Shown in pieces: positions 40,824-56,790 of a DNA stretch of 64,000 nt. This DNA is from Vulcanimicrobiota bacterium (GTDB taxonomy: Bacteria > Vulcanimicrobiota > Vulcanimicrobiia > Vulcanimicrobiales > Vulcanimicrobiaceae): positions 5,934 to 69,933 of the forward strand of contig CAVVMT010000019.1 in the NCBI GenBank assembly GCA_963749395.1, given 5' to 3'. Both the position numbers and the translations under genes were made by a program. Numbering within the stretch: the stretch's first letter is position 1; every line of letters starts with the position of its first letter. The notes below the pieces were generated by a model. The model saw only the letters and a program-made list of their open reading frames with translations, was not told the DNA's origin and ran no database searches.

Positions 40824-40876
40824 CGACGGATCGTTCCATGTTCGCACTCCTCTCGACTCCAGCGCATGGTCCTCCT

Positions 40877-41242
40877 CTAGTTCTTGGGGATGGCCGGCAG
40901 GACGACGACGACCGCCTTCATCCACGGATGTAAGGCGCAGAAGTATGCGTAGGTGCCGGGCTTGGTGAACGTGCGGGTGAACGTGGCGCCGGTGTCCATG
41001 CCGCCCGAGTCGTAGCTCTTGTCGGCGGCGGTCACGGTGTGCGCGTCGTCGTCGTCGTTGACGAACAGGACGGTGTCGCCGGTGTGAACGGTGACCTTGT
41101 TCTCGTGATAGGCGAAATTCTTGATGTGGACGGTCGCGACCGGTTTGGCGGTCGCGGGCGAAGGGGCCGGCTCGGCGGCCCCGGCCGGGCCGCTCCACGC
41201 GAGAGCGGCCCAGAGGGCGAGGGAGAGATGGGTGATCTTCAT
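40877..41242 (-). CDS. secreted cupredoxin (amicyanin/pseudoazurin-like type 1 copper protein)
   Basis: Signal peptide MKITHLSLALWAALAWSGPAGA. Copper ligand pattern H (DDAHTV) and C-x2-H-x2-M (FCALHPWM). Confidence 0.8.
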   Translation of the reverse strand: MKITHLSLALWAALAWSGPAGAAEPAPSPATAKPVATVHIKNFAYHENKVTVHTGDTVLFVNDDDDAHTVTAADKSYDSGGMDTGATFTRTFTKPGTYAYFCALHPWMKAVVVVLPAIPKN

Positions 41243-41607: not shown

Positions 41608-41867
41608 GATGTCCTTTCGTGATGCGAGCGATGTGCTCTGCCTTGTCTATGCCGCCGCCCCCGGGGCCGGATGACCGCCCCGACAGGTATACGGGAAAGT
41701 CTACCGCGGCGGCGGCACCCGCTGTCGCCGCCGCGACCCCGGAGTTGCGCGAAGGGACCGCGGCCTTTCTCGAAAAGCGTTCCGTGCGCCGACGTGCGCC
41801 GGAGTTCGCGCGCCGAGTAGCCATCGAACGACAGGGAATCCATGCGCGCGTTTGCAATGCCGCAACG

Positions 41868-42611
41868 GTGCAGATTAGCGCCGCGCCGCGGCTCGACGGA
41901 CAGATAGCACTCATCACCGGCGCGTGCGGCGCGATCGGCGGCGCCACCGCCGCACTGTTCGCTGATGCTGGGGCGACCGTCGTGGCCACCGACATCGTCG
42001 GCCCGTCGCGCCCGTTCGCCGATCCGGGCACGATGTACCGGCGTTACGACGTACGCTCGCGGAGCGAGACCGACGCGTTGGTCGGCGAACTGATCGCAGC
42101 GCACGGGCGCATCGACGTGCTCGTGCTGTGCGCCGGCGTCGTTTCCGGGACGCCGCTCGAGACGGTGACCGACGAAGAGTGGGACGCGATCGACAGCGCC
42201 AACGTGCGCGGCGTGCTCAATCCGCTGCGCGCGATCTATCCGCACATGGTCGCGCAAAAGTACGGCAAGATCGTCGCGCTCGGTTCGATCGCGGCCAAGA
42301 TCGGCGGGTTCACCGCCGGGCCGGCGTACGTGGCCGCAAAGTCGGCGGTGCACGGGATCGTCAAGTGGGTCGCCAAGAACGGCGCCCGGCACGGCGTCTA
42401 TGCGAACGTCGTCGCACCGGGTCCGGTCGAAACGCCGATGTTCGAATCGGTGGCCGCCGGCAACAAGCCCAGCGCCGCGGCGACGATTCCGCTCGGGCGC
42501 TACGGCGTGCCCGCCGACATCGCGCAAGCGATTCTGTTTCTCGCATCGCCGCAATCACATTGGATCACGGGCGCCGTGCTCGATGTGAACGGCGGCATGT
42601 TGATGGACTGA
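41868..42611 (+). CDS. SDR family oxidoreductase (FabG-like)
   Basis: ALITGACGAIGGA, YVAAKSA, VVAPGPVETPM. The start is uncertain (in-frame GTG 41784 or 41868). The upstream in-frame stretch holds a crotonase C-terminal relic. Confidence 0.75.
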   Translation: MQISAAPRLDGQIALITGACGAIGGATAALFADAGATVVATDIVGPSRPFADPGTMYRRYDVRSRSETDALVGELIAAHGRIDVLVLCAGVVSGTPLETVTDEEWDAIDSANVRGVLNPLRAIYPHMVAQKYGKIVALGSIAAKIGGFTAGPAYVAAKSAVHGIVKWVAKNGARHGVYANVVAPGPVETPMFESVAAGNKPSAAATIPLGRYGVPADIAQAILFLASPQSHWITGAVLDVNGGMLMD

Positions 42612-42624: not shown

Positions 42625-43518
42625 ATGGCTGGAAAAGTAGGATTCATCGGCTTGGGCGTGATGGGCGGGCCGATGTGCCGCAATCTCGCCACGAAGTCGG
42701 GCCGGACGGTCGTCGGCTTCGATCTGCGGCCCGAAGCGATCGCCGCGCTCGCCGATGCGGGCGTCGAGGCGGCGACCTCGATCGCCGACGTCATGCGGCA
42801 GTGCGACATCGTCTTTCTCTCGTTGCCCGGCGAACGCGAGGTGCGGGCGGTGTGCACCGGTCCCGACGGCGCGTTCGCCCACGCGCGCCCCGGCACGACG
42901 GTCGTCGACACGAGCACGACGCTCGTCTCGACGACCCGTCAAGTCGGCGCCCGGGCGCTCGAACTCGGGATCGATTACCTCGACTCGCCGGTCACCCGCA
43001 CGCGTGAAGCCGCTGTCGCCGGAACGCTCAGCATCATGGTCGGCGGCTCGCAGGCCGGCTTCGAACGCATCGAGCCGCTGCTGCGCTGCATGGGGACCGA
43101 CGTGACGCATTGCGGCGCGATCGGCAGCGGCGAAGTGTGTAAGATCCTCAACAACATGCTCAACATCATGAACAATTTGGCCGTGGCCGAGGCGCTGACG
43201 ATCGGCCGCAGCGCCGGCGTCGACGACAAGCTGCTGCTCGAAACGATTTCGAAAGGCTCGGGCGACAGCTTCGTGCTGCGTCAGCACGGCATGAAGTTCA
43301 TGCTGCCGCGCCACTTCCCGGAGAAAGCCTTTCCCACGACGTACGCCCTCAAAGACCTCGGTTACGCGCTCGCGCTCGCCGAGGACAACGGCATCGACGT
43401 GCAGGCCCTCAAGCTCGCGATCCGCCGCTACGAAGAGAGCAAAGCCGCCGGCAACGCCGACACGTATTTCCCCGCCGTCATCCGCCTCATCGACGGCACG
43501 CAGCCGGTCAAGGCCTAA
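42625..43518 (+). CDS. NAD(P)-dependent 3-hydroxyisobutyrate-dehydrogenase-family oxidoreductase
   Basis: VGFIGLGVMGGPMCRNL, DSPVTRT, KILNNM. Confidence 0.85.
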   Translation: MAGKVGFIGLGVMGGPMCRNLATKSGRTVVGFDLRPEAIAALADAGVEAATSIADVMRQCDIVFLSLPGEREVRAVCTGPDGAFAHARPGTTVVDTSTTLVSTTRQVGARALELGIDYLDSPVTRTREAAVAGTLSIMVGGSQAGFERIEPLLRCMGTDVTHCGAIGSGEVCKILNNMLNIMNNLAVAEALTIGRSAGVDDKLLLETISKGSGDSFVLRQHGMKFMLPRHFPEKAFPTTYALKDLGYALALAEDNGIDVQALKLAIRRYEESKAAGNADTYFPAVIRLIDGTQPVKA

Positions 43519-44438
43519 ACGCGGGAGAAGCCCTGGCCCTTTTGGCCGAGCAGACCGTACGGCCGCACGAGCAGCACGGCGAGCATCACGACGAACACGA
43601 GCACCTGTTCGAAGCTCGAGGAGATATACGCCGCGATCAAATTGTTCGCGATCCCGAAGAAGCAGCCGCCGATCACGGCGCCGCGGAAACTCGCCAGGCC
43701 GCCCAACACGACCGCCGCGAACGCCGAGAACATGAACACGACGAGGCTCGTGTTCGTCAGGTAGGTGACCGGCGTCGCGAACAGGGCGGCGATCGCGAAC
43801 AGGACGCCGCTGATCGTCCAGCTCGCGGTGTAGATGCGGTGCAAGTCGAGGCCGACGAGTTCGGTCGCGAGCGGGTTGTCGTAGGCAGCCTGCATCGCGA
43901 TGCCGAGCGACGTGCGGTCGAAGAACCACGACAGGATCCCGAAGAGCAAGAGGCTGACGACGATGATCGCGGCGTTGTCGTACCCGATCGCGATCCCGCC
44001 GTAGCGGAACGTCGCGTTGCCGAAGAGGCTCGGCAGCGTTCCGATCTCGCTGCCCGCGATGATCTGTTCGAGCCCCTGCGCGAGCATCGCGAACGCGAAG
44101 GTCCCGATCACGATGTTGAGCACCGTGTGCTCTTCGTACATCCCGCGGATCCGCAGCCAGCGGCCGGCGCGCCGGCCCAGCGGGTCGATGATGCCGCGGC
44201 TGAAGAGGTATCCCAGCGCGGCCCCGGCGATCAGCGTCGCCGGGGCGCTCACGTAATAGGGAAAGTGCAGCACGACGAGCAGCACGTAGGTGAAGTACGC
44301 GAGGACCGTCGCGATGTCGCCCCCGGCGAAGTTGAGGATGCGGGTCGTGCGGTACACGACGACGAGCCCCAAGCCCGTCAGCGCGTAGAGCAGCCCGGTC
44401 GCCAATCCCGAAACGAGGAGGTTGATCGCGAAGGCCAT
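43515..44438 (-). CDS. branched-chain-amino-acid-type ABC transporter permease (LivH-like)
   Basis: MAFAINLLVSGLATGLLYALTGLGLVVVYRTTRILNFAGGD. Confidence 0.85.
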   Translation of the reverse strand: MAFAINLLVSGLATGLLYALTGLGLVVVYRTTRILNFAGGDIATVLAYFTYVLLVVLHFPYYVSAPATLIAGAALGYLFSRGIIDPLGRRAGRWLRIRGMYEEHTVLNIVIGTFAFAMLAQGLEQIIAGSEIGTLPSLFGNATFRYGGIAIGYDNAAIIVVSLLLFGILSWFFDRTSLGIAMQAAYDNPLATELVGLDLHRIYTASWTISGVLFAIAALFATPVTYLTNTSLVVFMFSAFAAVVLGGLASFRGAVIGGCFFGIANNLIAAYISSSFEQVLVFVVMLAVLLVRPYGLLGQKGQGFSRV

Positions 44439-44450
44439 CGGTGCGTGGCC

Positions 44451-45686
44451 TTACTTGTCGTCCCGGGTCGCGGCCAGCGCCGCTTCGGGGAACGGCATCA
44501 GCTTGGTGACGCGGTAGAAATTGCCGCCGCGCGCCTGCACGAAGGCTTCCTTGGTGATGCCCGAGTCATGGTTCTGCTCGGTGAACGTGATCGCGTTGAC
44601 GATCGTGAAGCTGACGTTGCGGAACCCGTAGAGCACTTTCATCAGGTTCGCCCGGGTGACGTCCATATGCGCGTCGGTCAGGCGTTTGAACGCTTCCGCG
44701 AAGCAGCCCGCACTGAGCCAGCCGTTGGATGAGAGGCCGCCGATCGGAATCTTCGCCGCCTCCATCGCCGACACGTACTCGTGCACGCCGGGCGTGTTGA
44801 GGGTCGCCGGGTCGAACCAGCTCGTCGAGTACACGCCTTCGTTGAGCGTCCCCACCAGTTTGGAGACCGACGGATCGGCCAGGAAGAACGGCGTGAACCA
44901 CTTGGGATGGAAGTTGATGGCGTTGGCGGCTTTGAGGGTCGCGGCGAAGGCGCCGGTCGTGCCCCAATAGAGCACCGTATCGGCGCCCGACTGCGCGATC
45001 TTCGAGACGTTGGCGGTCATGTCGACGGTGCTCGCCTCGAACGTCGCGTCGGCGACGAGCTTCATGTTGAGGGCGGCCGCTTCGGCGTTGGCGCCCTTGA
45101 GCGCCGGGATGCCGACGTCGTCCTGTTCGTACATCACCGCGATCTTCTGGGCGTGCAGGCTCTGCACGGCGTACTGCACGGCGAGCCCGGCTTCCCACGC
45201 GTAGTTCGGCATGACGACGAAGAACGTCGGCAGCTTCGAGAGGCCGGGAACGCCCTCGGGCGGCGCGACGTTGGGCACGTCGGTCCCCTTGAGGTAGTTC
45301 GCCGCCGCCGCGTTGGTGGGCGAGCCCTCGTTGACCGAGAGCGCGAACACCTTGTCTTGTTCGACGAGCTGTTTGATGTTGGCCACGGCGCGCGCCGGCT
45401 GGTACGCGTCGTCGAGCACGATGTACTTGATCTTCCAGCCGTTGATGCCGCCGCGCGCGTTGACCATGTCGAAGTACGCCTTGGCGGCGTTGTTGATGTT
45501 GGCGTAGAACGCGACCGGCCCGGTGTACTGACTCGAGGCGCCGAGCGTGATCGTCTTGGTCGCGGGGTCGACGCCGGGGGTCGGTTCGGCGGCGATGCCG
45601 GCGCCGGCATTGACCGCCCACAAGCCGGCGAGCGCCGTCGTGGCGAGCGCGACCCGAGCCGCACGAGCGATGCGAGATGAGAGCAT
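44451..45686 (-). CDS. ABC transporter substrate-binding protein (LivK / Peripla_BP_6 type)
   Basis: AGGAG upstream of ATG 45686. Signal peptide, then ITLGASSQYTGPVAFY..INGWKIKYIVLDDAYQP. Confidence 0.85.
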   Translation of the reverse strand: MLSSRIARAARVALATTALAGLWAVNAGAGIAAEPTPGVDPATKTITLGASSQYTGPVAFYANINNAAKAYFDMVNARGGINGWKIKYIVLDDAYQPARAVANIKQLVEQDKVFALSVNEGSPTNAAAANYLKGTDVPNVAPPEGVPGLSKLPTFFVVMPNYAWEAGLAVQYAVQSLHAQKIAVMYEQDDVGIPALKGANAEAAALNMKLVADATFEASTVDMTANVSKIAQSGADTVLYWGTTGAFAATLKAANAINFHPKWFTPFFLADPSVSKLVGTLNEGVYSTSWFDPATLNTPGVHEYVSAMEAAKIPIGGLSSNGWLSAGCFAEAFKRLTDAHMDVTRANLMKVLYGFRNVSFTIVNAITFTEQNHDSGITKEAFVQARGGNFYRVTKLMPFPEAALAATRDDK

Positions 45687-45705
45687 GATGACGACTCCTG
45701 TTGCT

Positions 45706-46416
45706 TTAGGTTCCAAGGAAAAGGGTGGCGGGGTTGCGGTTCTTTCGAAACTCGTCGGGCGTTCCGCGGGCGACGATGGTCCCGAGGTTGAGCGCGAAGA
45801 CGGCGTCTGCGATGCGCAGCGCCATGTTCGTGTTCTGCTCGGCAAGCACGATCGTGAGCCCGAGTTCGCGGCGCAGCGTCGCGAGCAGGGCGAACAGGGC
45901 TTGGGTGGCGATCGGCGAGAGGCCGAGCGACGGTTCGTCGAGCAGGAAGATGCGCGGCCGCGTCATCAACGCGCGCGCCACGGCCAGCATCTGCTGCTCG
46001 CCGCCACTCATCGAACCGGCGCGTTGCTCCATCCGCTCGCGCAAGCGCGGAAAGTAGCCGAGCACGTTCTCGAGGTCGCGTCCGGCCGCGGCGGCATCGC
46101 CGCGCGCCAGCGCGCCGAGCATCAAGTTCTTGCGCACCGACATGCCCCAGAAGAGTTCGCGCGTCTCCGGGAGCAGCACGATCCCGCGTCGCACGCGATC
46201 GTGCACGAGCGCGTGCGTCACGTCGTCGCCGTCGAAGCGGATCGTCCCGCTCGCGGGCCACAGCAGTCCCGCGATCGCGCGCAGCAGCGTCGTTTTGCCG
46301 GCGCCGTTGGAGCCGACGACCGCGACGATCGAGCCCGCTTCGACGTCGAGATCGCAACCGCGCAACGCGACGCTGTCGCCGTACCCTGCGGTGACCCCGC
46401 GCAGCTCGAGCATCAT
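45706..46416 (-). CDS. ABC transporter ATP-binding protein (LivF-like)
   Basis: GSNGAGKTTLL, MSGGEQQML, LLDEPSLGL. ATGA overlap with the LivG-like gene. Confidence 0.85.
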   Translation of the reverse strand: MMLELRGVTAGYGDSVALRGCDLDVEAGSIVAVVGSNGAGKTTLLRAIAGLLWPASGTIRFDGDDVTHALVHDRVRRGIVLLPETRELFWGMSVRKNLMLGALARGDAAAAGRDLENVLGYFPRLRERMEQRAGSMSGGEQQMLAVARALMTRPRIFLLDEPSLGLSPIATQALFALLATLRRELGLTIVLAEQNTNMALRIADAVFALNLGTIVARGTPDEFRKNRNPATLFLGT

Positions 46417-47216
46417 GCCGGTTCCGAACCTTCCGGTTCGGGCGGTCCCAGGTACGCGTCGATCACGCGCTGATCCTCGAACACCGCCGCCGGCGCGCCC
46501 GAGGCGATCAACTCGCCGAAATCCATTACGTAGACGCGATCGCACAAGCCGTGGATGAACGACATGTCGTGGTCGACGACGAGCAGCCCGCAGCCCAGGC
46601 TGCCGCGAATCGACTGCAGCAGGGCGATGATGTCGCGCTTCTCCTCGACCGTGATCCCGGCGACCGGCTCGTCGAGCAGCAGCAGTTTGGGACCCGACAC
46701 GAGCGCGCGCGCGATCTCCACCGCTTTGCGCGCGCCGTACGGAATCTCCCCGACGCGCCGCTGTGCCCACGACTCGAGGCCGCAGAACGCGAGCAGTTCC
46801 CGCGTGCGCTCGATGCCGGCCGCCTCGCTGCGCCGCAGCGCCGGCGTGCGCAGGAGCGCGGCGACGAAATCGGAGAGCCCCGGATGGTGCCCCAGCAGCA
46901 CGTTGGCGAACACGCTGCGGTCGGGGATCAACTGCGGGCTCTGGAACGTGCGCGCGCAGCCGAGCGCGAGCAGACGGTGCGCGGGCAGATGCTGCACGTC
47001 GTGCCCGGCGACCGACAACGTCGCGGCGGTCGCCGGCACGAAGCGGCTGATCGCATTGAGCACCGTCGATTTGCCGGCTCCGTTCGGCCCGATCAAGCCC
47101 ACGATCTCGCCCGGCTCGACGTGCATCGTCAGCCGGTCGACCGCGACCAAACCGCCGAAGCGGACGGTCAAGTCGACGATGTCGAGTCCGCGGCTACGCG
47201 CCGGCGCGGCGATCAC
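46413..47216 (-). CDS. ABC transporter ATP-binding protein (LivG-like)
   Basis: GPNGAGKSTVLN, IPYGARKAVEIARAL, LLLDEPVAG. GTG 47216 overlaps the LivM-like stop (GTGA). Confidence 0.85.
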   Translation of the reverse strand: MIAAPARSRGLDIVDLTVRFGGLVAVDRLTMHVEPGEIVGLIGPNGAGKSTVLNAISRFVPATAATLSVAGHDVQHLPAHRLLALGCARTFQSPQLIPDRSVFANVLLGHHPGLSDFVAALLRTPALRRSEAAGIERTRELLAFCGLESWAQRRVGEIPYGARKAVEIARALVSGPKLLLLDEPVAGITVEEKRDIIALLQSIRGSLGCGLLVVDHDMSFIHGLCDRVYVMDFGELIASGAPAAVFEDQRVIDAYLGPPEPEGSEPA

Positions 47217-48163
47217 GGTTTGGCCTCGTCGACCAAAATGGGCGCGGGTCCGCGGCGCTTCATGCGCGACTCGGGGCGGACCAGCGAGACGATGCCGTTG
47301 GGGCGCAAAATCAGCATGCCGAGCAGCAGCGCTCCGAGCATGACCCCGCCCCAGGCCGCCGAGCCGGCGAGCAACTGGGGCGCGAGCACGACGACCGCCG
47401 CGCCGAGCAGCGCGCCGGCCGGCGACGAGACGCCGCCGATGATCGACCCCGCGAGGAACAGCGCCGACTGCGTGAACGAGAACGTCGCGGGTGAAATCTG
47501 GCTGACGAGATAGAGCACGAGCGCGCCGCTCAAGCCCGCCAGCCCGTTGCCGAAGCTGACCGCGAGCACTTTGGCCGCGGTCGTGTCGATGCCGAGCGAG
47601 CGCGCCGCGTGGACGCTCGTCTTCTGCAGCATCAGCGCGGCGCCGAAGTGCGAGCGGTCGAGATTGCTCTGCATCCAAATCGCGAGCGCGACCAATAGCA
47701 GCGCGAGCCAGTACATCGTCGCCGTCGAGGTGCCGGCGATGCGCAGCGAGTCGACGTAGACGCCGCCGTAGCCGCCGGTCAGCGGCGCGGCCACGGTGAG
47801 AAACTGCGGCACGGCCCAGCCGAGCGCGAGGGTCACGACCGCGAAGTACGGCCCGGTCAACCGCACCGACGGGATCGCGACGATCAATCCCACCAACGCC
47901 GCGGCCGCTACCGCCGCGACGAGCGCGAGCGGCCACGGCGCGTGCAAGCGCGTCGCGCAGATGGCGGCCGCGTACGCACCGATGCCTTGAATCGCCGCAT
48001 GGCCGACCGAGACGAGCCCGCTGTTGGCGATGATGTAGCTCAAGCCCAAGAGCGCGAGCGCCGTCACGAGCATCAACGCGAGGGTGAAGAGATACGAGTC
48101 GGGCACGTACAGTGGGGCGGTAGCCGCGACGGCCGCGGCCACGAGCCACCAGCGCGCGTTCAC
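47213..48163 (-). CDS. ABC transporter permease (LivM-like)
   Basis: GLVSVGHAAIQGIGAYAAA. A multi-TM protein of 316 aa. Confidence 0.85.
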   Translation of the reverse strand: MNARWWLVAAAVAATAPLYVPDSYLFTLALMLVTALALLGLSYIIANSGLVSVGHAAIQGIGAYAAAICATRLHAPWPLALVAAVAAAALVGLIVAIPSVRLTGPYFAVVTLALGWAVPQFLTVAAPLTGGYGGVYVDSLRIAGTSTATMYWLALLLVALAIWMQSNLDRSHFGAALMLQKTSVHAARSLGIDTTAAKVLAVSFGNGLAGLSGALVLYLVSQISPATFSFTQSALFLAGSIIGGVSSPAGALLGAAVVVLAPQLLAGSAAWGGVMLGALLLGMLILRPNGIVSLVRPESRMKRRGPAPILVDEAKP

Positions 48164-48172
48164 CGAAGCCTG

Positions 48173-48955
48173 CTATTTGACGGCAACATCGACGCCCGGG
48201 ATGGCGCCTCCGATGCAGTAGCCGCCGTCGGCGCGCAGCACCTCACCGGTGATGAAGCTCGACGCCGGCGAAGCGAGAAACATCACGGCCTGCGCGATGT
48301 CGTTCGCGGTGCCGATGCGTCCGAGCGGGGTGCGCTTGCGGCGCCCTTCCCACGCGGATTCATCGAGGATGCGCATCGACATCGGGCTGGGGATCGCGCT
48401 CGGCGCAACCGAGTTGACGCGGATCGACTGCGCCCCGAGGTCGACCGCGAGCGCGCGGGTAAACCCGTCGATGCCGGCCTTGATCGCTGCGTACACGGGC
48501 GAGTAGGCCATCCCCGTCAGCGCCGAGATCGACGACATGTTGACGATCGAGCCGCCGCCCTTGCGGATCATGCTCGGCACCACCGCCTGGGTCATCCAGA
48601 AGACTTGCTTGAGCCCGGCCGCGAGCATCCGGTCGACGGTCTCTTCGTCGATCTGGTCGATCTTCTGATACGTCGCCCAGGTCGCGTTGTTGACCAAGAC
48701 GTCGACGTCGCCGAATTTCGCCTGCACCTCGGCGACGATCTCGGCGGCGCGCGCGCGCTGCGTGAGATCGGCCTCGATCGGCAGCACGTGTCCGCCGACG
48801 TCGGCGAGCTGATCGGCCAGGGCCCGGATGCCGTCGCCGTTGATGTCGACCATCGCGACCGAGGCCCCGGCGCCGGCGAAGACCCGCGACATCACGCTCC
48901 CGATCCCGCCCGAAGCGCCAGTCAGGACGATCGTCAGGCCGTCGAGCTGTCTCAT
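48173..48955 (-). CDS. SDR family oxidoreductase
   Basis: VLTGASGGIGS, NNAT, YAAIKAG. ATG 48955 overlaps the HyuB stop (ATGA). Confidence 0.85.
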   Translation of the reverse strand: MRQLDGLTIVLTGASGGIGSVMSRVFAGAGASVAMVDINGDGIRALADQLADVGGHVLPIEADLTQRARAAEIVAEVQAKFGDVDVLVNNATWATYQKIDQIDEETVDRMLAAGLKQVFWMTQAVVPSMIRKGGGSIVNMSSISALTGMAYSPVYAAIKAGIDGFTRALAVDLGAQSIRVNSVAPSAIPSPMSMRILDESAWEGRRKRTPLGRIGTANDIAQAVMFLASPASSFITGEVLRADGGYCIGGAIPGVDVAVK

Positions 48956-50718
48956 GATGCGCTCTCCGCCAGCACCGGTTTGGGGGCCCGCAGGTCGCCG
49001 GTCGCCGCCGCGTCGACCGACCACGAAGTGCCGTCCGGCACGACCGCGACCCGGTAGTCGTCGCGCGCGCTCTGGGGAGTGATGAACCCGCGGACGACGT
49101 CGCGCAGGACGGCGTGCGGTTCGCGCGCGAGCGGGTCGCCCCAGCCCCCGCCGCCGGGGGTGGCGACGCGGGTCGAATCGCCCGGCACCATTCGCACGCC
49201 CTCGTCTTTGGTCAGATGTTCGGGGACGTACGATTTGCCGGCGAGGGTGTACTCGATCTCGCACTTCTCGCCTTCGGCGCCGCCGTGCAAACCGAATGGC
49301 CCGAAGCGGCCGCGGTCGCCCAGGCAGCTCGAGACGGCTTCTCCGCGCAGCAGTTGCACGTCGAACTCCATCCCGAATCCGCCCCGGTGTTCGCCCGCGC
49401 CGCCCGATCCCTCGCGGATGCTGTAGTGGTTGAAGCGCAACGGGTAGAGTTGCTCGAGGATCTCGATCGGCGACGTCAGCGCCGCCGAGATCGGGGCGTT
49501 GCCGTTCGTCAGCCCGTCGCACGTCGGGTGGCCGCCGTACCCGCCGCCGCTGAAGCGGAACATGATGTAACGCCGCGCCCGCTCGGGATCGTAGCCGCTG
49601 AGCGTATAGTTCGCGACCGAACCGAAGCACGCGGCGGGGACGCGGTCGGGCACCGCTTGCGCGAGCGCGCCGAACACCGCGTCGACGACCCGGATCGATA
49701 CCTCGGCCGACGAGCCGGAGACCGCGCGCGGGAACTTCGCGTTGAGGAAGGTCGCCTCGGGGATGATGACGTTGACCGGCTTGAAGATCCCGGCGTTGAT
49801 CGGCACTTCGGGGAAGACGTGCTTGAGGCCGACGAAGACGGCCGAGAACGCCGCCGAGTACGACGCGTTGAGCGGGCCGGCGACCGGCGGGCTCGAGCCG
49901 GTGAAGTCGAACGTCAGCGTGTCGCCGGCGATCGTCACTTCGAGCGCCACCCGGATCGGCTCGAACACGATTCCGTCGGAGTCGAGGAACGTCTCGAAGC
50001 GGTAGACGCCGTCGGGCATCGCCTTGATGTAGGCGCGCATCTGCTGCTCGGAGCGCACCGTCAACTCGTTCGTGTAGCGGGTGACGTTGTCGACGCCGTA
50101 CTTGTCGAGCAGCGCGCGCAGCCGGGCGTCGCCGATGTTGAGCGCGGCGATCTGCGCTTGGAAGTCGCCGCGGCGCTCTTCCGCCACCCGCATGTTGGCG
50201 AGCAGCAGGGTCAGCATGTCTTCTTGCAATTCGCCGTTGCGGCAGATCAGGACGGGCGGGATCCGCACGCCTTCCTGAATGATCTCGGTCGCGCGCACCC
50301 CGAACCCGCCGGGCACGTTCCCGCCGATGTCGGTCCAGTGTCCGCAGTTGGCCAGGAACGCGAACCGCTTGCCCTGATAGTAGAACGGGCGCACGAGCTT
50401 GGTGTCCATCAAGTGCGTGCCGCCGCAGTACGGGTCGTTGAGGATCACGACGTCACCTTCGCCCAGATTGGGATGCGCCGCGATCGCCGCTTGCACCGCG
50501 AACTGCATGACGCCGATGAAGATCGGCAAACCGGTATCGCCCTGCGCGACGACGACCCCGGTCTCGCCGTCGTAGATGCCGTTGGCGCGATCGCGCCCTT
50601 CGGACATCACCGGATTGAAGGCCGCGCGTTCGAGGCCCAAGTCCATTTCGTCGACGATCTGGCGCAGCGAGTTCTGCATGACCGCCAGGGTCGCCGGATC
50701 GATCTTGTCCGTATTCAC
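48952..50718 (-). CDS. hyuB: hydantoinase B / oxoprolinase family protein
   Basis: Only the C-terminal 588 aa of the 1614-aa track ORF look real (DPATLAVMQNSLRQIVDEM..., NDPYCGGTHLMD). GTG 50718 overlaps the HyuA stop (GTGA). Confidence 0.85.
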   Translation of the reverse strand: MNTDKIDPATLAVMQNSLRQIVDEMDLGLERAAFNPVMSEGRDRANGIYDGETGVVVAQGDTGLPIFIGVMQFAVQAAIAAHPNLGEGDVVILNDPYCGGTHLMDTKLVRPFYYQGKRFAFLANCGHWTDIGGNVPGGFGVRATEIIQEGVRIPPVLICRNGELQEDMLTLLLANMRVAEERRGDFQAQIAALNIGDARLRALLDKYGVDNVTRYTNELTVRSEQQMRAYIKAMPDGVYRFETFLDSDGIVFEPIRVALEVTIAGDTLTFDFTGSSPPVAGPLNASYSAAFSAVFVGLKHVFPEVPINAGIFKPVNVIIPEATFLNAKFPRAVSGSSAEVSIRVVDAVFGALAQAVPDRVPAACFGSVANYTLSGYDPERARRYIMFRFSGGGYGGHPTCDGLTNGNAPISAALTSPIEILEQLYPLRFNHYSIREGSGGAGEHRGGFGMEFDVQLLRGEAVSSCLGDRGRFGPFGLHGGAEGEKCEIEYTLAGKSYVPEHLTKDEGVRMVPGDSTRVATPGGGGWGDPLAREPHAVLRDVVRGFITPQSARDDYRVAVVPDGTSWSVDAAATGDLRAPKPVLAESAS

Positions 50719-52757
50719 GACTCCACCTCGATGATCAGATTGCCGTACTCGTCGACGGTCACGGTGCTGTCGGGCTCGACGACCGTCGTCGAGTCCATCT
50801 GGTTGAAGATCGCCGGGCCGCGGATGACGCCGCCGAGCGGCAGCGCATCGCGCTCGTACACCGGCGTGTCGACCCATCCGCCGTCGAACCAGACGGGACG
50901 CGTCTCGCGCACGGCTTCGGCGACCGATCCGGTCTTGTGGCCGGCGGCGACGATGCGCCGCAAGTCGAGCTGCGGACGGATCCCGATCACCGACGTGCGC
51001 AGGTTGATCAGCTTGGCGCGAAACGCGCCGAGGTCGATGTTGAAGCGGTCGAGGTAGGTTTGGCGCAGCGCATCGCTGAGCGCCTTGACGTCGAGATGGC
51101 CGGCGTCGAGGGTGACCCGCATCGTGAACGTCTGGCCTTCGTACTGCATGTCGGCTTCGTGGACGACGTCGATCCGTTCGATCGGCACCTTCTCGGCCGC
51201 GAGCAGCGCTTCGCCGGCGGCGCGTTGTTCGCGCAGCACGCCGGCGACTTCGCTCTCGGTCAGCGTGTCGGTCGGCCGGGCGATCGTCTGCACGAAGTCG
51301 TGACGCACGTCGGCGACGATGCAGCCCAGCGCGCAGGTGATGCCGGGGACGTAGGGCACGATGACGCGCGGCACGCCGAGCTCGCGCGCGAGCGCCGCGC
51401 CGTGCAGCGGGCCCGCGCCGCCGAAGGCGAACAGCGCGAACTCGCGCGGGTCGTGGCCGCGCTGCAGGCTGACCAGCCGCATCGCGCCGGCCATCGCGTC
51501 GTTGATGATGCGAATGACGGAGACCGCGGCTTCGTCGGGGCCGATGCCCAGCGGGTCGCCGACGCGCTCCTTGAACGCGGCGCGCAGCTTGTCGCGGTCG
51601 ACCGCGCCGTCGACCGAGAGCAACGCTTGCGACGAGAGCCGCCCGAGCATGACGTTGGCGTCGGTGACGGTCGGTTCCACGCCGCCGCGCCCGTAGGCGA
51701 TCGGCCCCGGGACCGCGCCGGCGCTGCGCGGGCCGACGCGCAACATGCCCGACGCATCGACCGACGCGATGCTGCCGCCGCCGGCGCCGATCGTGTGGAT
51801 GTCGATGATCGGGATGCGCAGCGGCACCCTGAAGCTCAGGTCGCGGTCGCTGGTGACGATCGGTTCGCCGTCGACGATCATGCCGACGTCGAAGCTCGTC
51901 CCGCCCATGTCGCAGGTGATGACGTTCTCGAAGCCCGCGAGGCGCGAGATGAACGCCGCCGCGATCACGCCGGCCGCCGGGCCCGAGAGCACCGTGCTGA
52001 CCGAGCGTTCGCAGGCGGTGTCGGCGGCCATGATCCCGCCGTTGGCTTGCATGATGACGAGATCGCGCGGGACGCCGCGCGCGCGCAGCTCGTCGCGCAG
52101 GCGCGTGACGTAGCGGTGGATCAGCGGCTGGATGTATGCGTTGACCGCGGCCGTGCCGAAGCGCTCGGTCTCGCGAAATTCGCCGAGGATCTCGGCGCTC
52201 TGGGTGATGTACGGGTTGCCCCACACGCGCTCCGCCGCCCGCGCGGCCGCGGCTTCGTGGCTGCGGTTCGCGTACGAGTGCATGAACCCGATGACGAGCG
52301 ACTCGCAGCCCTGCGCGCGCAGCTGCGCCGCGGCGCGTTCGACCTGGCCCTCGTCGAGCGCGACGACGACGTTGCCCTCGGCATCGGTCCGCTCGTCGAC
52401 TTCGAGCCGGTTCTCGCGCGAGATCAGCGGCTCGAACTGGCCGTAGAGCCCGTAGAGCTGCGGGCGGTCGCGGCGTCCGAGTTCCACGATGTCGCGGAAC
52501 CCTTTGGTCGCGATCATCCCGCACTTCGCGCCGTTGCGCTCGAGGGTCGCGTTCGTGCCGACGGTCGTGCCGTGCACGAGCCACGAGATCCCCGCGTACT
52601 CGACGCCGGCGGTTGTCAGGCCGTTGAGAAACCCCGTCGCTTGATTGGCCGGCGTCGACGGCACCTTGCTCAGGCTGACCGCGCCGCTCTGTTCGTCGAT
52701 CGCGATCGTATCGGTGAACGTCCCGCCGATATCGACCCCGACTTGCTGCGTGCTCAC
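50715..52757 (-). CDS. hyuA: hydantoinase A / oxoprolinase family protein (ATP-dependent)
   Basis: VGVDIGGTFTDTIA and CDMGGTSFDV. 680 aa. Confidence 0.9.
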   Translation of the reverse strand: MSTQQVGVDIGGTFTDTIAIDEQSGAVSLSKVPSTPANQATGFLNGLTTAGVEYAGISWLVHGTTVGTNATLERNGAKCGMIATKGFRDIVELGRRDRPQLYGLYGQFEPLISRENRLEVDERTDAEGNVVVALDEGQVERAAAQLRAQGCESLVIGFMHSYANRSHEAAAARAAERVWGNPYITQSAEILGEFRETERFGTAAVNAYIQPLIHRYVTRLRDELRARGVPRDLVIMQANGGIMAADTACERSVSTVLSGPAAGVIAAAFISRLAGFENVITCDMGGTSFDVGMIVDGEPIVTSDRDLSFRVPLRIPIIDIHTIGAGGGSIASVDASGMLRVGPRSAGAVPGPIAYGRGGVEPTVTDANVMLGRLSSQALLSVDGAVDRDKLRAAFKERVGDPLGIGPDEAAVSVIRIINDAMAGAMRLVSLQRGHDPREFALFAFGGAGPLHGAALARELGVPRVIVPYVPGITCALGCIVADVRHDFVQTIARPTDTLTESEVAGVLREQRAAGEALLAAEKVPIERIDVVHEADMQYEGQTFTMRVTLDAGHLDVKALSDALRQTYLDRFNIDLGAFRAKLINLRTSVIGIRPQLDLRRIVAAGHKTGSVAEAVRETRPVWFDGGWVDTPVYERDALPLGGVIRGPAIFNQMDSTTVVEPDSTVTVDEYGNLIIEVES

Positions 52758-52766
52758 GTTTCGCTC

Positions 52767-53753
52767 CTACGTCGCGACGAGCTCGCGCTCGCGCCAGGCG
52801 ATGATGCGGCGGATGCCTTCCTCCACCGAGACTTGCGGCTCCCAGCCCAAGAGCTGCTTGGCCTTCTCGCGGCTGTAGTGCAGCTCGGTCGTGGTCGTGA
52901 AGCGGACCTTCGAGGGGTCGTCCTTGTACACGGGCTCGAGGTTCGAGTTGCACAGCCGCAAGAGGATGCGGGTGATGTCGTTGAGGGTCGTCTCGACGCC
53001 GGTGACGACGCTGAAGCTCTCGCCGGTGACGTCGCTCGCCATCGCCAGGACGTTCGCGCGCGCGACGTCGCCGGCGTAGACATAGTCGTGCACTTCGCTG
53101 CCGTCGCCGGGCAGTTCGGGCGGCAAGCCGCGCTTGATGCGGTCGTAGGCCTCGATGATGTAGAGCGCGTTGACCCCGCGGTAGTGCTGCCGTTCGCCAT
53201 AAACCGACGAGTAGCGCATGCAGTTGAACTGCAAGCCGTAGCGCTGGCCGTAGAGCCGGCACAGATTCTCGCCGATGATCTTGGTCGCGCCGTAGATCGC
53301 GCCGGCGGGTTGCAGCGGCGCCCAGTTGAAGGGCACCGTCTCGACGACGTCGCCGCTCGGGCTGCCGTACACGGCGGCCGACGAGGAGAATACGACTTTC
53401 TCCACGCCGCGCCAGCGGCACGCCTCGAGGACGGTCTGGTGGCCGCGGACGTTGACGTCGATCCCGGTCCAAGGATTTTGACTGAGCACGAGCGTCAGGA
53501 AACCGGCGACGTGGAAGACGCCGCTGACGCCGTCGAGCGCCTCGAGCACTTCGTTGATGCGCAAGATGTCGCCGCGGACCAGCTGCACGCGCGGGTCGCT
53601 CAAAAGATGCTCGACGGCTTGCGGGCTCCCGAGCGAGTAGTTGTCGAACAGCACGACGCCGGCGACGTCGCGTGCCAGCAGTTCCTCGGCGATGTGCGAG
53701 CCGATGAGGCTCGCTCCGCCGGTGATCAGCAGTTTGCGGCCGGAAAGGTTCAT
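52767..53753 (-). CDS. NAD-dependent epimerase/dehydratase family protein
   Basis: LITGGASLIGSH and YGATKIIGE (YxxxK). 328 aa. Confidence 0.85.
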   Translation of the reverse strand: MNLSGRKLLITGGASLIGSHIAEELLARDVAGVVLFDNYSLGSPQAVEHLLSDPRVQLVRGDILRINEVLEALDGVSGVFHVAGFLTLVLSQNPWTGIDVNVRGHQTVLEACRWRGVEKVVFSSSAAVYGSPSGDVVETVPFNWAPLQPAGAIYGATKIIGENLCRLYGQRYGLQFNCMRYSSVYGERQHYRGVNALYIIEAYDRIKRGLPPELPGDGSEVHDYVYAGDVARANVLAMASDVTGESFSVVTGVETTLNDITRILLRLCNSNLEPVYKDDPSKVRFTTTTELHYSREKAKQLLGWEPQVSVEEGIRRIIAWRERELVAT

Positions 53754-54466
53754 CGCTTTTTCTTGCCTCCTTGGCGCGGGCGCGCTGCGGGCGCACGCGG
53801 CGGCTCTTGTGCGGCGGATTTGCGTTCGGTGATGCGCACCGACAGCGCTTGGCGGATGTGCTCGCGCACGAGCGTTTCGCTGCGGTCGGCGTCGCGTGCG
53901 GTCAGCGCTTCGAGGATTTCTCGATGCTTGGAATGGACTTCGCGATGCCGGACGGTATAGCGTCCGCTCCGCGGCCGGTAGCGGACGAGGAGCCCGCGAA
54001 TGTACTTCAAAACGTCGCGCAGATACGGATTGCCGCTGGCTTCGGCGATCGTTTCATGGAACGACGAAGCCAAGCGTTCGAGCTCGTTGTCGGCGGCTTC
54101 GTCGCCGACGAGCAGCGCGGAATCGATCGCGTCGATCGTATCGGCGAGCTTTCCCAGTTGCGCGAAAGTGCGATTGGTCGCCGCGAGGCGCGCGGCGTAG
54201 CCCTCATTGATTTCGCGGACTTCATATATTTGCGCAAGCTCTTCGAGGCTGATCGCCCCTATGGAGTAACTGCCGGTAGGGTCGCGGTGGATGACGCCCT
54301 CCGCTTGCAGCCGGCGCAGCGCTTCGCGCACCGGCGTGCGGCTCGTGTGCAAGCGTTGCGCGAGTTCTTGCTCGCGAAACCGCGTCCCGGGCGAGATGAC
54401 GCCTTCGGCGATCCACGTGCGAACTTGATCGTACGCGGCGTCGCCGAGCGAGCCTTGAGCCCTCAC
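53750..54466 (-). CDS. GntR family transcriptional regulator (FadR/FCD subfamily)
   Basis: wHTH ELAQRLHTSRTPVREALRRLQAEGVI plus an FCD-like helical domain and a basic tail. The start (GTG 54466 or TTG 54469) is uncertain. The stop overlaps the epimerase start. Confidence 0.8.
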   Translation of the reverse strand: MRAQGSLGDAAYDQVRTWIAEGVISPGTRFREQELAQRLHTSRTPVREALRRLQAEGVIHRDPTGSYSIGAISLEELAQIYEVREINEGYAARLAATNRTFAQLGKLADTIDAIDSALLVGDEAADNELERLASSFHETIAEASGNPYLRDVLKYIRGLLVRYRPRSGRYTVRHREVHSKHREILEALTARDADRSETLVREHIRQALSVRITERKSAAQEPPRAPAARPRQGGKKKR

Positions 54467-54519: not shown

Positions 54520-54536
54520 GGTGTACCGTGTACACC
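54520..54536. promoter_or_regulatory. perfect inverted repeat GGTGTAC-CGT-GTACACC (candidate GntR operator)
   Basis: 7-bp arms with a 3-nt spacer, about 55 nt upstream of the GntR start, in the divergent control region. Confidence 0.45.
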
Positions 54537-54623
54537 AATGCCGGCTTTGCGATGATAGCGCCGGCTCGGCGAGAAAACAAGTGCTGCGGGAAAATTCGCC
54601 GGGAAAAGAGTTCCTGGCCGATA

Positions 54624-54652
54624 TTGCGCCGGCGAAAGTCTCGGTATACAAT
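54624..54652 (+). promoter_or_regulatory. candidate promoter of the racemase-like operon overlapping a GTATAC box
   Basis: TTGCGC (54624-54629), 17 nt, TACAAT (54647-54652). GTATAC at 54644-54649 overlaps the -10 box. Confidence 0.4.
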
Positions 54653-54765: not shown

Positions 54766-55617
54766 GTGCGACTAGCCTGGCATACCGGACTGACGGAAGA
54801 CACGCGCGGGCGGGTGCCCGACCCGGCGCTCTTGTGGCACGTCTGCAGCACCTATGCCGCCGCGGTCGTCGCACCGGGGACGACCGTCGACGTGCGGTTT
54901 TCGCCACGCCCGACGCTCAGCACGCAGCCGGTGATGTCGGCGGTGCACAACTTGAGCGTGACGATCGATGCGCTCGCGTGCGAAGCGCGCGGCTACGACG
55001 GCTTCATGGTCGCCGGCTCGATCGATCCCGGGCTCGACGAAGCGCGCAGCGCCGCGCGGTTCCCGGTCGTCGGCGTGCTCGAGGCGGGTCTGGCTTTCAG
55101 CTCGTTCGTCGGGCGGCGGGTCGGCATCGTGACCGTTCCCGGCGTGCCCGACCCGCTCGGCATTCCGCGCACGATCGAACTGAATGCGATCCGCTACGGG
55201 TACGGCGAGCGGCTGATCCGCAACCGTCCGGTGCGGGCGATCTTTTCGTCGCACGCCGATTTCTATCGCGCGTACGGCGACGCGGTCGGCGGGAACGGCG
55301 CCGAGTTCCTGGCCGCGTTCGACGAGGCGTGCGTCGCGCTCGCGGCCGACGGGGCCGAAGCGATCGTGTGCGGTAACCAGTTGTTCGGGCCGGTCCTCTA
55401 TCAGCACGGGCTGCGCTCCAAGACCGCGAGCGGCATTCCGTACCTCTGCAACACCGCGGCGGGGCTCAAAGCGCTCGAGGCGCTCGCCGCGCTGCGCGGT
55501 TCGATCGGGCTGGGCAAGAGCGAACTCGGCATCTTCCGTCCGCTCGGGTCGCCGTCGCTCGCGGACGCGTTCTCATGGCTCACCGAGGCGCTGGCCTCTC
55601 ACGGAGAACAACGATGA
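54766..55617 (+). CDS. Asp/Glu/hydantoin racemase superfamily protein
   Basis: GYDGFMVAGSIDPGLDEARSAARFPVVGVLEAG and DGAEAIVCGNQ resemble the two pseudo-symmetric halves of hydantoin racemases. Confidence 0.7.
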   Translation: MRLAWHTGLTEDTRGRVPDPALLWHVCSTYAAAVVAPGTTVDVRFSPRPTLSTQPVMSAVHNLSVTIDALACEARGYDGFMVAGSIDPGLDEARSAARFPVVGVLEAGLAFSSFVGRRVGIVTVPGVPDPLGIPRTIELNAIRYGYGERLIRNRPVRAIFSSHADFYRAYGDAVGGNGAEFLAAFDEACVALAADGAEAIVCGNQLFGPVLYQHGLRSKTASGIPYLCNTAAGLKALEALAALRGSIGLGKSELGIFRPLGSPSLADAFSWLTEALASHGEQR

Positions 55618-56790
55618 CTTCGAAGGTTTACCGCTTGCGTTTCGGCGCGCTGGCCGCGCTCGCGGCGCTCGGATATGCAGGCCTTTCTACGGTTCCCGGG
55701 GCGAGCCAGACGCCGGCGCCGATCGTCATCCCGGTCCTCTCGGCGGTCACCGGTCCGGGCTCGTCGTTCGGCGAGGCCAACGTCGTCTCGGTGAAGCTCG
55801 CGGTCGCCTCGGTCAACGCCGAAGGCGGCATCCTGGGCCATCAAGTGCAACTCGACATCCAGGACACGCAGACGCAGCCCACGCAGGCAGCGGCGCTCGT
55901 TCACCGCGACGCCGCGACGTATCTGGCGGCGATCGGTCCCAACCTCTCGAACGATGCGAAGGCGGCCTTTCCGGTCGCCGTGCAGGAGAAGTTTCCGATG
56001 GTCTCCGGCGGCGTCGCCGACGGCAAGGTCGTCGCGGCCAACCGCCCGTGGACGTTCTCGACGCTGATTCCGGCGCAATTGCTCGGCGAAGACGCGACCA
56101 AGACGTGGCTGAAGCGGACGAGCGTCAAGACCGTCGTGTTCATCGTCAACAATCAGGACGACGCCTCGACGAGCCAAGCGACGCTGATCCAGGCGACGCT
56201 CGAGAAAGCGGGCGTCAAGGTGCTCAAGAACATCACCGTTGCGAGCAATCAACCCGACTTCTCGGCCGAGGTCGCGGTCGTGAAATCCCTCGCTCCCGAC
56301 GGGGTCGTCGTCGGCAACCTCCCGCTCGGAGCCGCGTCGGTCGTCAAAGCGCTGACCGCGAACGGCGTGAACGCGCCGGTGATGATGACGCTCAGCTCGT
56401 TCGCGCCCGACTTCCTGACGGTCGCGGGCAAAGACGCGAAGAACGTCTTCACGTTCACCGAGTTCTGGTCGGGTTTGCCCGACCCGGCCGTCCAGAAGTT
56501 CTACGCCGCGTACGAGAAGGAGAGCCAAGGGAAGATCCAGCCGAGCTTGAGCGCGGCGAGCGCGTACGAAGCGGTGCGTCTGCTCGCGCAGGCGATGACG
56601 AAGGCGAAGGTGACCGGGCTCGACAGCAACGATTTCCCCGCACAGCGTCAAGCGCTGCTCGCGGTGCTGTCGAACACCAAAGACTTCCACGGCGTGCTCG
56701 GCAACTACAGCATCGGCCCGGACGGTTACCGCACCGGCGCGCGGCGTGTACCTGCAGATCACGGACGGCCGCGTCGCGCAGGTCAAGTAG
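55614..56790 (+). pseudogene. ABC substrate-binding protein (LivK type) with apparent frameshift near 56736-56746
   Basis: ATG 55614 overlaps the upstream stop (ATGA). Signal peptide. The body ends ...SIGPDGYRTGA, then the native-looking tail GVYLQITDGRVAQVK* is in the +1 frame (TAG 56788-56790). The track frame runs on into Arg-rich junk. Confidence 0.75.

Follow-up and report, generated by a model that had tools for sequence, protein, structure and literature searches.

This study concerns a 64,000-nucleotide stretch of DNA from a Vulcanimicrobiota bacterium (contig CAVVMT010000019.1, positions 5,934–69,933, assembly GCA_963749395.1), referred to here as the window, and a tightly packed operon of ten genes that occupies positions 43515–54466 of its minus strand. 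Two of these genes encode HyuA and HyuB, the subunits of an enzyme of the hydantoinase/oxoprolinase superfamily. The window has a GC content of ≈0.67, and its six-frame list of open reading frames (ORFs) is consequently crowded with long shadow ORFs. The ten genes were picked by the GC content of third codon positions (GC3) together with translation, and their coordinates include the stop codon. GC3 in the called frames was 0.83–0.94, and the family of each of the ten genes was supported by Pfam at E ≤ 1e-17.

The first gene (53750–54466; 238 amino acids (aa), GTG start) encodes a regulator with GntR and FCD domains (Pfam E-values 1.5e-17 and 2.3e-25). It is followed by Epi (52767–53753; 328 aa; Epimerase, 1.8e-43), an extended, GalE-like, NAD-dependent short-chain dehydrogenase/reductase (SDR); by the ATP-binding (ASKHA) subunit HyuA (50715–52757; 680 aa; Hydant_A_N, Hydantoinase_A and Hydant_A_C); by the metal-site subunit HyuB (48952–50718; 588 aa; Hydantoinase_B, 1e-168); and by a classical SDR oxidoreductase (48173–48955; 260 aa; adh_short_C2, 1.1e-59), which we call simply SDR. 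The remaining five genes encode a LivM-like ABC permease (47213–48163; BPD_transp_2, 3.4e-25), a LivG-like ABC ATPase (46413–47216; ABC_tran and BCA_ABC_TP_C), a LivF-like ABC ATPase (45706–46416; ABC_tran, 7.7e-33), a Peripla_BP_6 periplasmic binding protein with a signal-peptide-like N terminus (44451–45686; 411 aa; 4.1e-52) and, last in the operon, a LivH-like ABC permease (43515–44438; BPD_transp_2, 5e-25). All are on the minus strand. A 1614-codon open frame at 48952–53796, also on the minus strand and in the frame of HyuB, continues across HyuA and Epi, both of which use different frames, and is not a gene but a shadow ORF of the GC-rich DNA.

Five of the junctions are 4-nt overlaps (ATGA at GntR/Epi, HyuB/SDR and LivG/LivF, GTGA at HyuA/HyuB and LivM/LivG), and at the remaining four the genes are separated by 9 nt (Epi/HyuA), 9 nt (SDR/LivM), 19 nt (LivF/binding protein) and 12 nt (binding protein/LivH). 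By eye, a purine-rich, Shine-Dalgarno-like stretch precedes the start codon at every junction except SDR/LivM. A preliminary description of this DNA, made from the sequence alone, had given the same gene order, strand and coordinates, which translation and Pfam bear out, and had described the junctions as ATGA/GTGA overlaps or gaps of at most 20 nt, as they are. Its title spoke of eleven genes; the sequence and its own list contain ten, which leave no space for another. A search for terminator-like sites in the region found 7, against 7.0 expected in shuffled sequence, and none was inside any junction. A weak terminator-like hairpin at 43446–43462 on the minus strand, ≈50 nt past the LivH stop, is suggestive only, such sites being no more frequent than in shuffled sequence.

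The operon is also present on a 167-kb contig from another assembly, that of a close relative (L047), which was found through a binding protein 94% identical to that of the window. The ten genes called there match those of the window in kind and order, and the equivalent GTG start was called for its GntR gene. Thus, the arrangement is not an assembly artefact. Upstream of the GntR gene the two contigs differ: the window has a divergent operon with racemase-like and PrpD genes, whereas L047 has an Iron_permease gene, which places a synteny break exactly at the operon boundary. DNA sequencing runs containing the sequence were moss, peat, permafrost and soil metagenomes only, and the source organism is therefore uncultured.

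Alignment of the upstream regions of the window and L047 served as a phylogenetic footprint, in which conserved blocks stand out from otherwise diverged intergenic DNA. A putative sigma-70-type promoter lies at 54552–54580 on the minus strand, with a −35 hexamer TTGTTT (54580–54575), a 17-nt spacer and a −10 hexamer TATCAT (54557–54552). In L047 the corresponding block is TTGTTT-17-TATGAT, in which the hexamers and the 17-nt spacing are kept and the spacer sequence is different. This promoter candidate falls below the threshold of a generic promoter scan, and its identification comes from the footprint only. (The TTG at 54580 that heads the longest possible GntR ORF is part of the putative −35 hexamer.) Just downstream of the −10 hexamer, at 54520–54536, is a perfect palindrome, GGTGTAC-N3-GTACACC, with 7-nt arms that are 100% complementary and a 3-nt spacer. 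It is the sole exact match within the window. Both arms are identical in L047, where the spacer differs, and a search of L047 at ≤2 mismatches returned the exact palindrome plus a single 2-mismatch site within the Epi gene, where chance alone would give 0.02. More distant loci carry other regulators and lack the palindrome. The regulator combines an N-terminal winged-helix GntR domain with a C-terminal FCD domain, as in the FadR/FCD subfamily (Pfam), and reaches no NCBIfam equivalog cut-off. Based on its position and conservation, the palindrome is likely the operator of the GntR/FCD protein. Further upstream, a box identical in the window and L047, TTGTATACC (54643–54651, minus strand), contains a GTATAC palindrome and may be an auxiliary operator half-site.

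The HyuAB enzyme, its dehydrogenase partners and the importer

The preliminary description had placed HyuA and HyuB in the ATP-dependent hydantoinase/oxoprolinase superfamily, and their domains and motifs agree. In HyuA, Hydant_A_N, Hydantoinase_A and Hydant_A_C were matched with E-values of 2.4e-51, 6.4e-94 and 7.2e-10, and in HyuB the Hydantoinase_B profile was matched over its full length (positions 1–519 of 519). The ATP-site motifs of the ASKHA fold, defined as DxGGTxTD, DxGGT and GxxPGP (PMC8453981), are present in HyuA as DIGGTFTD, DMGGT and GAVPGP, both in the translation and in the alignment to the N-methylhydantoinase 7hk5, and the equivalents of CapA D11 and D295 are conserved. In HyuB, the Asp of RDRANG, the His and Asp of GTHLMD and the His of CGHWTD align with D41, H99, D102 and H124 of CapB (6yra_B), an Asp-His-Asp-His metal tetrad whose positions were found essential in caprolactamase by mutagenesis (PMC8453981). 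ATP-dependent catalysis and an (alpha-beta)2 assembly, which are properties of the superfamily, would be predicted for HyuAB.

For both subunits the best solved relative is the fused N-methylhydantoinase 7hk5, at only moderate similarity (477 bits along all of HyuA, 289 bits for HyuB), followed by caprolactamase 6yra (386 bits to CapA, 281 bits to CapB), whereas the acetophenone and acetone carboxylases in the PDB scored 258–291 bits against HyuA and 77–145 bits against HyuB. The best NCBIfam models were those of caprolactamase, CapA with 500.4 bits and CapB with 332.3 bits against an equivalog cut-off of 1000 each (NF050156/NF050157). Since these scores are about half the cut-off or less, HyuAB are not caprolactamase equivalogs. 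The acetophenone carboxylase models scored 290, 189 and 148 bits against cut-offs of 1500, 1250 and 1500, and across the curated NCBIfam models neither subunit reached the cut-off of any characterised equivalog. No gene for a small gamma or epsilon (Zn) subunit was detected with Pfam among the ten operon genes. On these scores, HyuAB is placed on the lactamase/hydantoinase side of the superfamily, without being an equivalog of any curated member, and the placement, which uses curated hidden Markov model cut-offs and bit scores to solved structures, is coarser than a tree. Of the two reactions that the preliminary description had suggested, ring opening and carboxylation, the former is favoured by sequence similarity and by the lack of a gamma subunit.

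The two dehydrogenases have the expected nucleotide-binding and catalytic motifs in their translations, namely GxxGxxG and YxxxK in Epi and TGxxxGxG and YxxxK in SDR. By the usual rule for SDRs, an Asp after the second β-strand indicates NAD and the oxidative direction, and such an Asp is present in both, so that both are predicted to prefer NAD. The best NCBIfam/PDB matches of Epi, GalE and RmlB, are far below cut-off (108 against 262 bits and 119 against 365 bits). We considered the possibility that Epi is a UDP-glucose 4-epimerase or a dTDP-glucose 4,6-dehydratase and rejected it on the missed cut-offs and on the catabolic context, which has neither a glycosyltransferase nor a nucleotidyltransferase. 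The JGI name of its homologues, "UDP-glucose 4-epimerase", is an automatic label. Epi belongs to a large family, with 1685 proteins matched at E ≤ 1e-60. SDR passes a single NCBIfam model, that of a generic subfamily (216 bits, cut-off 215).

The last five genes have the composition of a HAAT ABC importer: two BPD_transp_2 permeases, two ATPases, one of them with BCA_ABC_TP_C, and a Peripla_BP_6 protein. All miss the curated LivJ/K-HMGF cut-offs (binding protein 67/477, LivH 67/379, LivM 109/366, LivG 221/362 and LivF 200/441 bits). The binding protein had four homologues in all among 5.8 billion protein clusters, of which one was close (94%) and the next was 38% identical. In orthologous clusters that have such a system, the binding proteins are ≈20–23% identical to that of the window and LivG/F are 30–49% identical; other orthologous clusters use TRAP (tripartite ATP-independent periplasmic), TTT (tripartite tricarboxylate) or MFS (major facilitator superfamily) transporters. 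The "dedicated amino-acid-type importer" of the preliminary description was thus an overstatement, given a lineage-specific binding protein so far below the LivJ/K cut-off.

Conservation of the enzyme core in other bacteria

Homologues of HyuB at 60–74% identity form about 90 protein clusters, most of them metagenomic; the named sources are Rhizobiales, Rubrivivax, Acetobacteraceae and Microbacterium. We fetched 38 genomic loci and mapped the window proteins onto each, and annotated eight neighbourhoods with Pfam, covering HyuB homologues and the near-identical binding protein. (HyuB homologues on annotated plasmids were all <53% identical, represent paralogous clades and were set aside.) Epi was beside HyuAB in 11 of the 15 loci with HyuB at least 68% identical. 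An Epi homologue was beside HyuAB in all ten loci with HyuB at least 70% identical, and in nine of these the homologue is 60–70% identical to Epi of the window; the tenth, L005, is exceptional in having an Epi copy that is 46% identical and on the opposite strand. An SDR 43–60% identical to that of the window adjoins HyuA in five loci (L001, L002, L007, L013 and L032), and in several lies just before it. Both types of oxidoreductase that the preliminary description had noted as paired with HyuAB are therefore co-conserved with it in other genomes. In contrast, none of the 38 loci contained the racemase, the PrpD, the second binding protein of the window or the binding protein of the operon.

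Among the Pfam-annotated neighbourhoods, each listed here in gene order, the minimal set was found in Microbacterium sp. 1.5R (L046), where a GntR/FCD gene stands divergent to a row of HIBADH-like, HyuA, HyuB, Epi and MFS transporter genes. Xanthobacter autotrophicus DSM 431 (L042) has a LeuC/LeuD-type hydratase, a PrpB-like lyase, SDR, HyuAB, Epi, a binding protein and an isochorismatase. An uncultured alphaproteobacterium (L040) has TRAP genes, HyuAB, a binding protein, LivHMGF, a PrpB-like lyase, an isochorismatase, ECH, SDR, Epi and GntR/FCD. A JGI metagenome contig (L041) carries LysR, SDR, HyuAB, an alpha/beta hydrolase, Epi, three binding proteins, LivHMGF and an isochorismatase, and two ENA metagenome contigs carry TctC carriers, aldehyde dehydrogenases, Epi, SDR, HyuAB and further SDRs (L043) or TetR, HyuAB, binding proteins, LivHMGF and Epi (L044). 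In Rubrivivax (L045), HyuAB is accompanied by PrpD, MR_MLE, Aldedh, IclR, HIBADH and TctC, with no Epi. What is conserved is therefore (dehydrogenase)-HyuA-HyuB-Epi, joined by a transporter of variable type: Liv-ABC, TRAP (DctPQM), TTT (TctC) or MFS. Of what the preliminary description had proposed to check as neighbourhood conservation, the enzyme core recurs, while the transporters are exchanged and the racemase/PrpD operon is not kept. Cultured carriers of the core module are Xanthobacter autotrophicus DSM 431, Agaricicola taiwanensis CCM 7684 and Microbacterium sp. 1.5R.

A HyuB clade at 50–56% identity (Reyranella, Stella, Bryobacterales) has neither Epi nor SDR. In three loci with HyuB at ≈55% (L016, Reyranella; L018, Rhodospirillales; L031, Stella sp. 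ATCC 35155), a Liv-type ABC system comes after HyuAB, and beyond it lies a second, divergent HyuAB pair (35–38%), an arrangement of tandem paralogous ring-opening enzymes around one importer. Epi orthologues 61% identical to that of the window also occur without HyuAB, in L050 (8001–10436) and L051 (8001–12355), one of them beside PrpD/TctC and another in an Epi-PrpF-FAD_binding_2-GntR/FCD row of a Sphingomonadales metagenome-assembled genome. These may belong to a distinct module of organic-acid metabolism that is just as uncharacterised. The substrate of Epi is probably an organic-acid intermediate rather than the heterocycle.

Proposed function, alternatives and relation to known systems

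TRAP and TTT carriers and FCD-type regulators usually handle carboxylates, and their recurrence near HyuAB suggests a carboxylated substrate. The isochorismatase-family cysteine hydrolases found in three related clusters (L040, L041 and L042) have triuret, biuret and ureidoacrylate (RutB-type) amidohydrolases as their nearest solved relatives (84 bits, against 44 bits to carbamoylsarcosine amidase), and would fit a ring-opening product with a carbamoyl or amide group. The PrpB-like lyases of related clusters scored 283–305 bits, against a methylisocitrate lyase cut-off of 354. Together with the LeuC/LeuD-DmdB-type hydratase, PrpD and the aldehyde dehydrogenases, they point to a branched di- or tricarboxylic skeleton.

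With moderate confidence, we read the locus as a substrate-inducible catabolic operon for the uptake, NAD-linked oxidation and ATP-dependent opening of a cyclic amide, which probably bears a carboxylate. The GntR/FCD protein would repress transcription at the palindrome just downstream of TTGTTT-17-TATCAT and be released by the substrate or an intermediate, while the Liv/HAAT-type system with its lineage-specific binding protein would import the substrate. HyuAB would open a chemically stable cyclic amide (a lactam, hydantoin or substituted imide), with HyuA using ATP and HyuB supplying the metal site, in the manner of N-methylhydantoinase, 5-oxoprolinase and caprolactamase. Epi and SDR would oxidise hydroxyls, either on the ring before opening, for example from a hydroxylactam to an imide, or on the opened product, and the carbon skeleton would then enter branched di-/tricarboxylic-acid metabolism encoded outside the operon.

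Several observations weigh against this reading. The second dehydrogenase varies between a classical SDR and a HIBADH-like protein, and some loci with HyuAB 67–68% identical, such as that of Rubrivivax, have no Epi. Related clusters have binding proteins and permeases that are no orthologues of those in the window, and the compound carried may therefore differ between genomes. Liv-type systems also carry neutral amides and urea, which weakens the argument for a carboxylate. Pfam detected no second amidase, aminotransferase or lyase in the operon, so that the pathway is incomplete locally and the account is weakened to that extent; an isochorismatase or other amidase was also not found near the operon, and three Amidohydro_3 genes lie 24–35 kb away in the window. 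No RNA runs holding the operon sequence were found. Finally, the line between hydrolase and carboxylase is not sharp in this superfamily, since caprolactamase requires bicarbonate (PMC8453981).

That requirement indicates a mechanistic kinship with the ketone carboxylases (PMC8453981), and we considered whether HyuAB could itself be such an enzyme: the two SDRs would turn a secondary alcohol or hydroxy acid into a ketone, and HyuAB would phosphorylate the enol and carboxylate it, with no amide being hydrolysed. The superfamily, the ASKHA ATP site and the metal tetrad are shared, the two NAD-type dehydrogenases are fixed partners of HyuAB that fit an alcohol-to-ketone step, and the window operon has no amidase or aminotransferase. 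However, HyuB scores 77–145 bits to carboxylase subunits and 281–289 bits to the lactamase and hydantoinase (HyuA, 258–291 against 386–477 bits), it is 588 aa long where the carboxylase subunits have 684–776 aa, no gamma, alpha' or epsilon subunit is encoded, the acetophenone carboxylase models reach 148–290 bits against cut-offs of 1250–1500, and three related clusters include cysteine-hydrolase amidases, all of which makes carboxylation quite unlikely. Salvage of L- or D-pyroglutamate, with HyuAB producing glutamate as a two-subunit 5-oxoprolinase and the operon serving pyroglutamate uptake and use, is very unlikely. It would be in keeping with the eukaryotic 5-oxoprolinases, which are fused HyuA-HyuB proteins of the same superfamily (PMC8453981), with a Liv-type importer, which suits an amino-acid-like compound, and with carboxylate-type carriers and an FCD regulator, pyroglutamate being a carboxylated lactam abundant in plant litter. 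Nevertheless, two conserved dehydrogenases would be left unexplained, because pyroglutamate has no hydroxyl, as would the amidase, PrpB-like, LeuCD-like and PrpD neighbours; control by a repressor and linkage to an importer do not suit a housekeeping enzyme, and the housekeeping oxoprolinase of bacteria is usually PxpABC (PMC8453981).

The transcript might also combine two functions, the five Liv-type genes encoding an ordinary importer for amino acids or amides and the Epi-HyuAB-SDR set being unrelated to it. The transporter is not co-conserved as orthologues (binding proteins ≈20%, LivG/F 30–49% identical), orthologous enzyme modules use TRAP, TTT or MFS instead, and the gene order LivM-G-F-binding protein-LivH is unusual. 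Against a division of this kind, the SDR/LivM gap is 9 nt, with overlaps on either side and no terminator, the ten-gene unit is intact in L047 although its upstream neighbourhood has changed, and a Liv-type system adjoins HyuAB in many related loci. Moreover, catabolic modules commonly exchange their transporters while keeping the enzyme core. We give this explanation as slim a chance as pyroglutamate salvage, and return to the opening of a cyclic amide.

A more specific version of that reading is speculative, and we think it rather unlikely to be correct: dehydrogenase-HyuA-HyuB-Epi would be the core of an undescribed route that opens a stable carboxylated N-heterocycle from plant litter or peat and feeds methylcitrate-like chemistry (PrpB/PrpD/PrpF/LeuCD-type). 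Candidates consistent with the neighbourhoods are dialkylmaleimides and hydroxypyrrolinones from chlorophyll or haem breakdown, such as hematinic acid imide, which when opened and deamidated would be methyl-homo-aconitate; reduced pyridone carboxylates of the tetrahydro-6-oxonicotinate type; and substituted 5-oxoprolines. A literature search showed that compounds of these types are documented in leaves and sediments and did not find bacterial catabolism of them.

The preliminary description could match the gene set to no described pathway, and our search of the accessible literature likewise found none, nor any HyuAB coupled to a GalE-like SDR. The N-methylhydantoinase of the creatinine pathway (PDB 7hk5/9h03, a fused protein of 1288 aa) shares its domain order, ATP motifs and metal ligands with HyuAB, and by inspection of the alignment is roughly 40–45% identical to HyuA and ≈35–40% to HyuB, which in the window are separate subunits. 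Its step in the creatinine pathway is followed by an isochorismatase-family N-carbamoylsarcosine amidase. Related clusters here also carry an isochorismatase-family hydrolase, though nearer to the triuret/biuret/RutB type, while the creatinine pathway has no counterpart of the two conserved dehydrogenases, and creatinine deaminase, N-carbamoylsarcosine amidase and sarcosine oxidase were not detected by Pfam in the operon or its flanks. The caprolactamase CapAB and the valerolactam lactamase OplAB of Pseudomonas jessenii and P. putida (6yra) are two-subunit enzymes of (alpha-beta)2 type with shared motifs, in which ATP is spent on opening a stable lactam. By contrast, the enzymes that partner HyuAB in the window are NAD-dependent dehydrogenases, and neither an aminotransferase nor a semialdehyde dehydrogenase to process an omega-amino acid is encoded in the operon. 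The acetone and acetophenone carboxylases belong to the same superfamily, but their similarity is much lower, their catalytic subunits are longer, and they need gamma/epsilon subunits that are absent here. Their context usually includes an alcohol dehydrogenase that supplies the ketone.

Nicotinate degradation offers an analogy of logic only. In these routes, an NAD dehydrogenase makes an imide from a hydroxylated lactam, the ring is opened and the product is deamidated, and HIBADH-, LeuCD-, PrpB- and PrpF-type enzymes process branched dicarboxylates. The lower part of nicotinate fermentation in Eubacterium barkeri comprises Hgd, DmdAB, Dml and Mii. The fungal steps HxnW, HxnM and HxnN, described by Bokor et al. 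in 2022, are reportedly a polyol-type dehydrogenase, a cyclic imide hydrolase and an amidase. The HIBADH, LeuCD, PrpB and PrpF-type families all occur around HyuAB or Epi orthologues. However, the nicotinate routes open the ring with an ATP-independent imidase or enamidase and not with HyuAB, and no nicotinate hydroxylase or reductase was found near the window operon.

The operon is thus an orphan relative of the N-methylhydantoinase and CapAB/OplAB systems, outside both by score cut-offs and by companion genes. It is an ordinary-looking orphan catabolic operon, not surprising in itself, and conserved enough for an enzymology project. ATP-dependent HyuAB enzymes open rings that ordinary hydrolases cannot, including 5-oxoproline, N-methylhydantoin, and capro- and valerolactam, and few members have a known substrate. 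The present analysis delimits a clade, comprising at least about 90 protein clusters, in bacteria of soil, peat and freshwater, for which a GalE-like protein is a fixed partner, and names three cultured carriers. If the substrate were solved, the soil cycles of carbon and nitrogen would gain a catabolic route for a stable N-heterocycle, biocatalysis would gain a new lactamase, for example for nylon-type monomers or chiral amino acids, and the automatic labels "N-methylhydantoinase" and "UDP-glucose 4-epimerase" on these genes would be corrected.

Flanking genes and other features of the window

The divergent operon upstream of the GntR gene (54766–61331, plus strand) combines a second Liv-type importer with a PrpD-family enzyme. 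It consists of an Asp/Glu/hydantoin-racemase-like gene (54766–55617), a Peripla_BP_6 binding protein, the second in the window (55575–56939), an MmgE/PrpD gene (about 56.8–58.1 kb), an ABC ATPase (58160–58879), a permease (58876–59760) and a fused permease-ATPase (59760–61331), all on the plus strand. The preliminary description had treated this racemase-like/PrpD operon as context for HyuAB. As conserved context for the pathway it was rejected, since it is absent beside the L047 operon and its proteins were found in 0 of the 38 related loci; PrpD-type enzymes nonetheless recur near related modules.

On the other side, Pfam identified a convergent SDR (41619–42611, plus strand) and a HIBADH-like dehydrogenase (42625–43518, plus strand), the stop of which overlaps that of LivH (43515–43518). 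This convergent pair also adjoins the operon in L047 (12176–13831). It is outside the operon and may be functionally associated with it. The HIBADH-like proteins of the window and of the Microbacterium cluster are only 25% identical, and the two genes are therefore not orthologous.

The region 23191–35047 is dense in genes of organic-acid catabolism. It includes two FAD_binding_2 flavoproteins (23191–24717 and 26134–27675), two further MmgE/PrpD paralogues (27647–29056 and 30703–32265), which bring the PrpD genes of the window to three, a LeuC/LeuD-like hydratase pair (about 32.27–33.53 kb and 33534–34046) and a TRAP DctP protein (34043–35047), and is interrupted by a PAS-GGDEF gene on the minus strand (29087–30577). 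The LeuC-like protein of the window is only 41% identical to that of Xanthobacter.

A tRNA-Thr(CGT) gene at 13514–13589 is followed by a block, extending to 19832, of lower GC content (0.595–0.60, against about 0.67). The block encodes an Amidohydro_3-like ORF (14354–16321), a CobW-type metallochaperone (16275–17366), a Gly_transporter-family protein (17367–18029) and an Amidohydro_3 protein (18030–19832), and the whole of 13514–19832 may be an island that was acquired horizontally at the tRNA gene.

Signalling genes surround the catabolic genes. They comprise a PAS-GAF-HD(-GYP-like) protein (36421–38781, plus strand); an ECF sigma factor (40287–41198) with a downstream 223-aa partner and an SDR, together spanning 38691–41198 on the minus strand; and a second ECF sigma factor (3391–4014) with a DUF4349 protein (2141–3397), at 2141–4014 on the minus strand.

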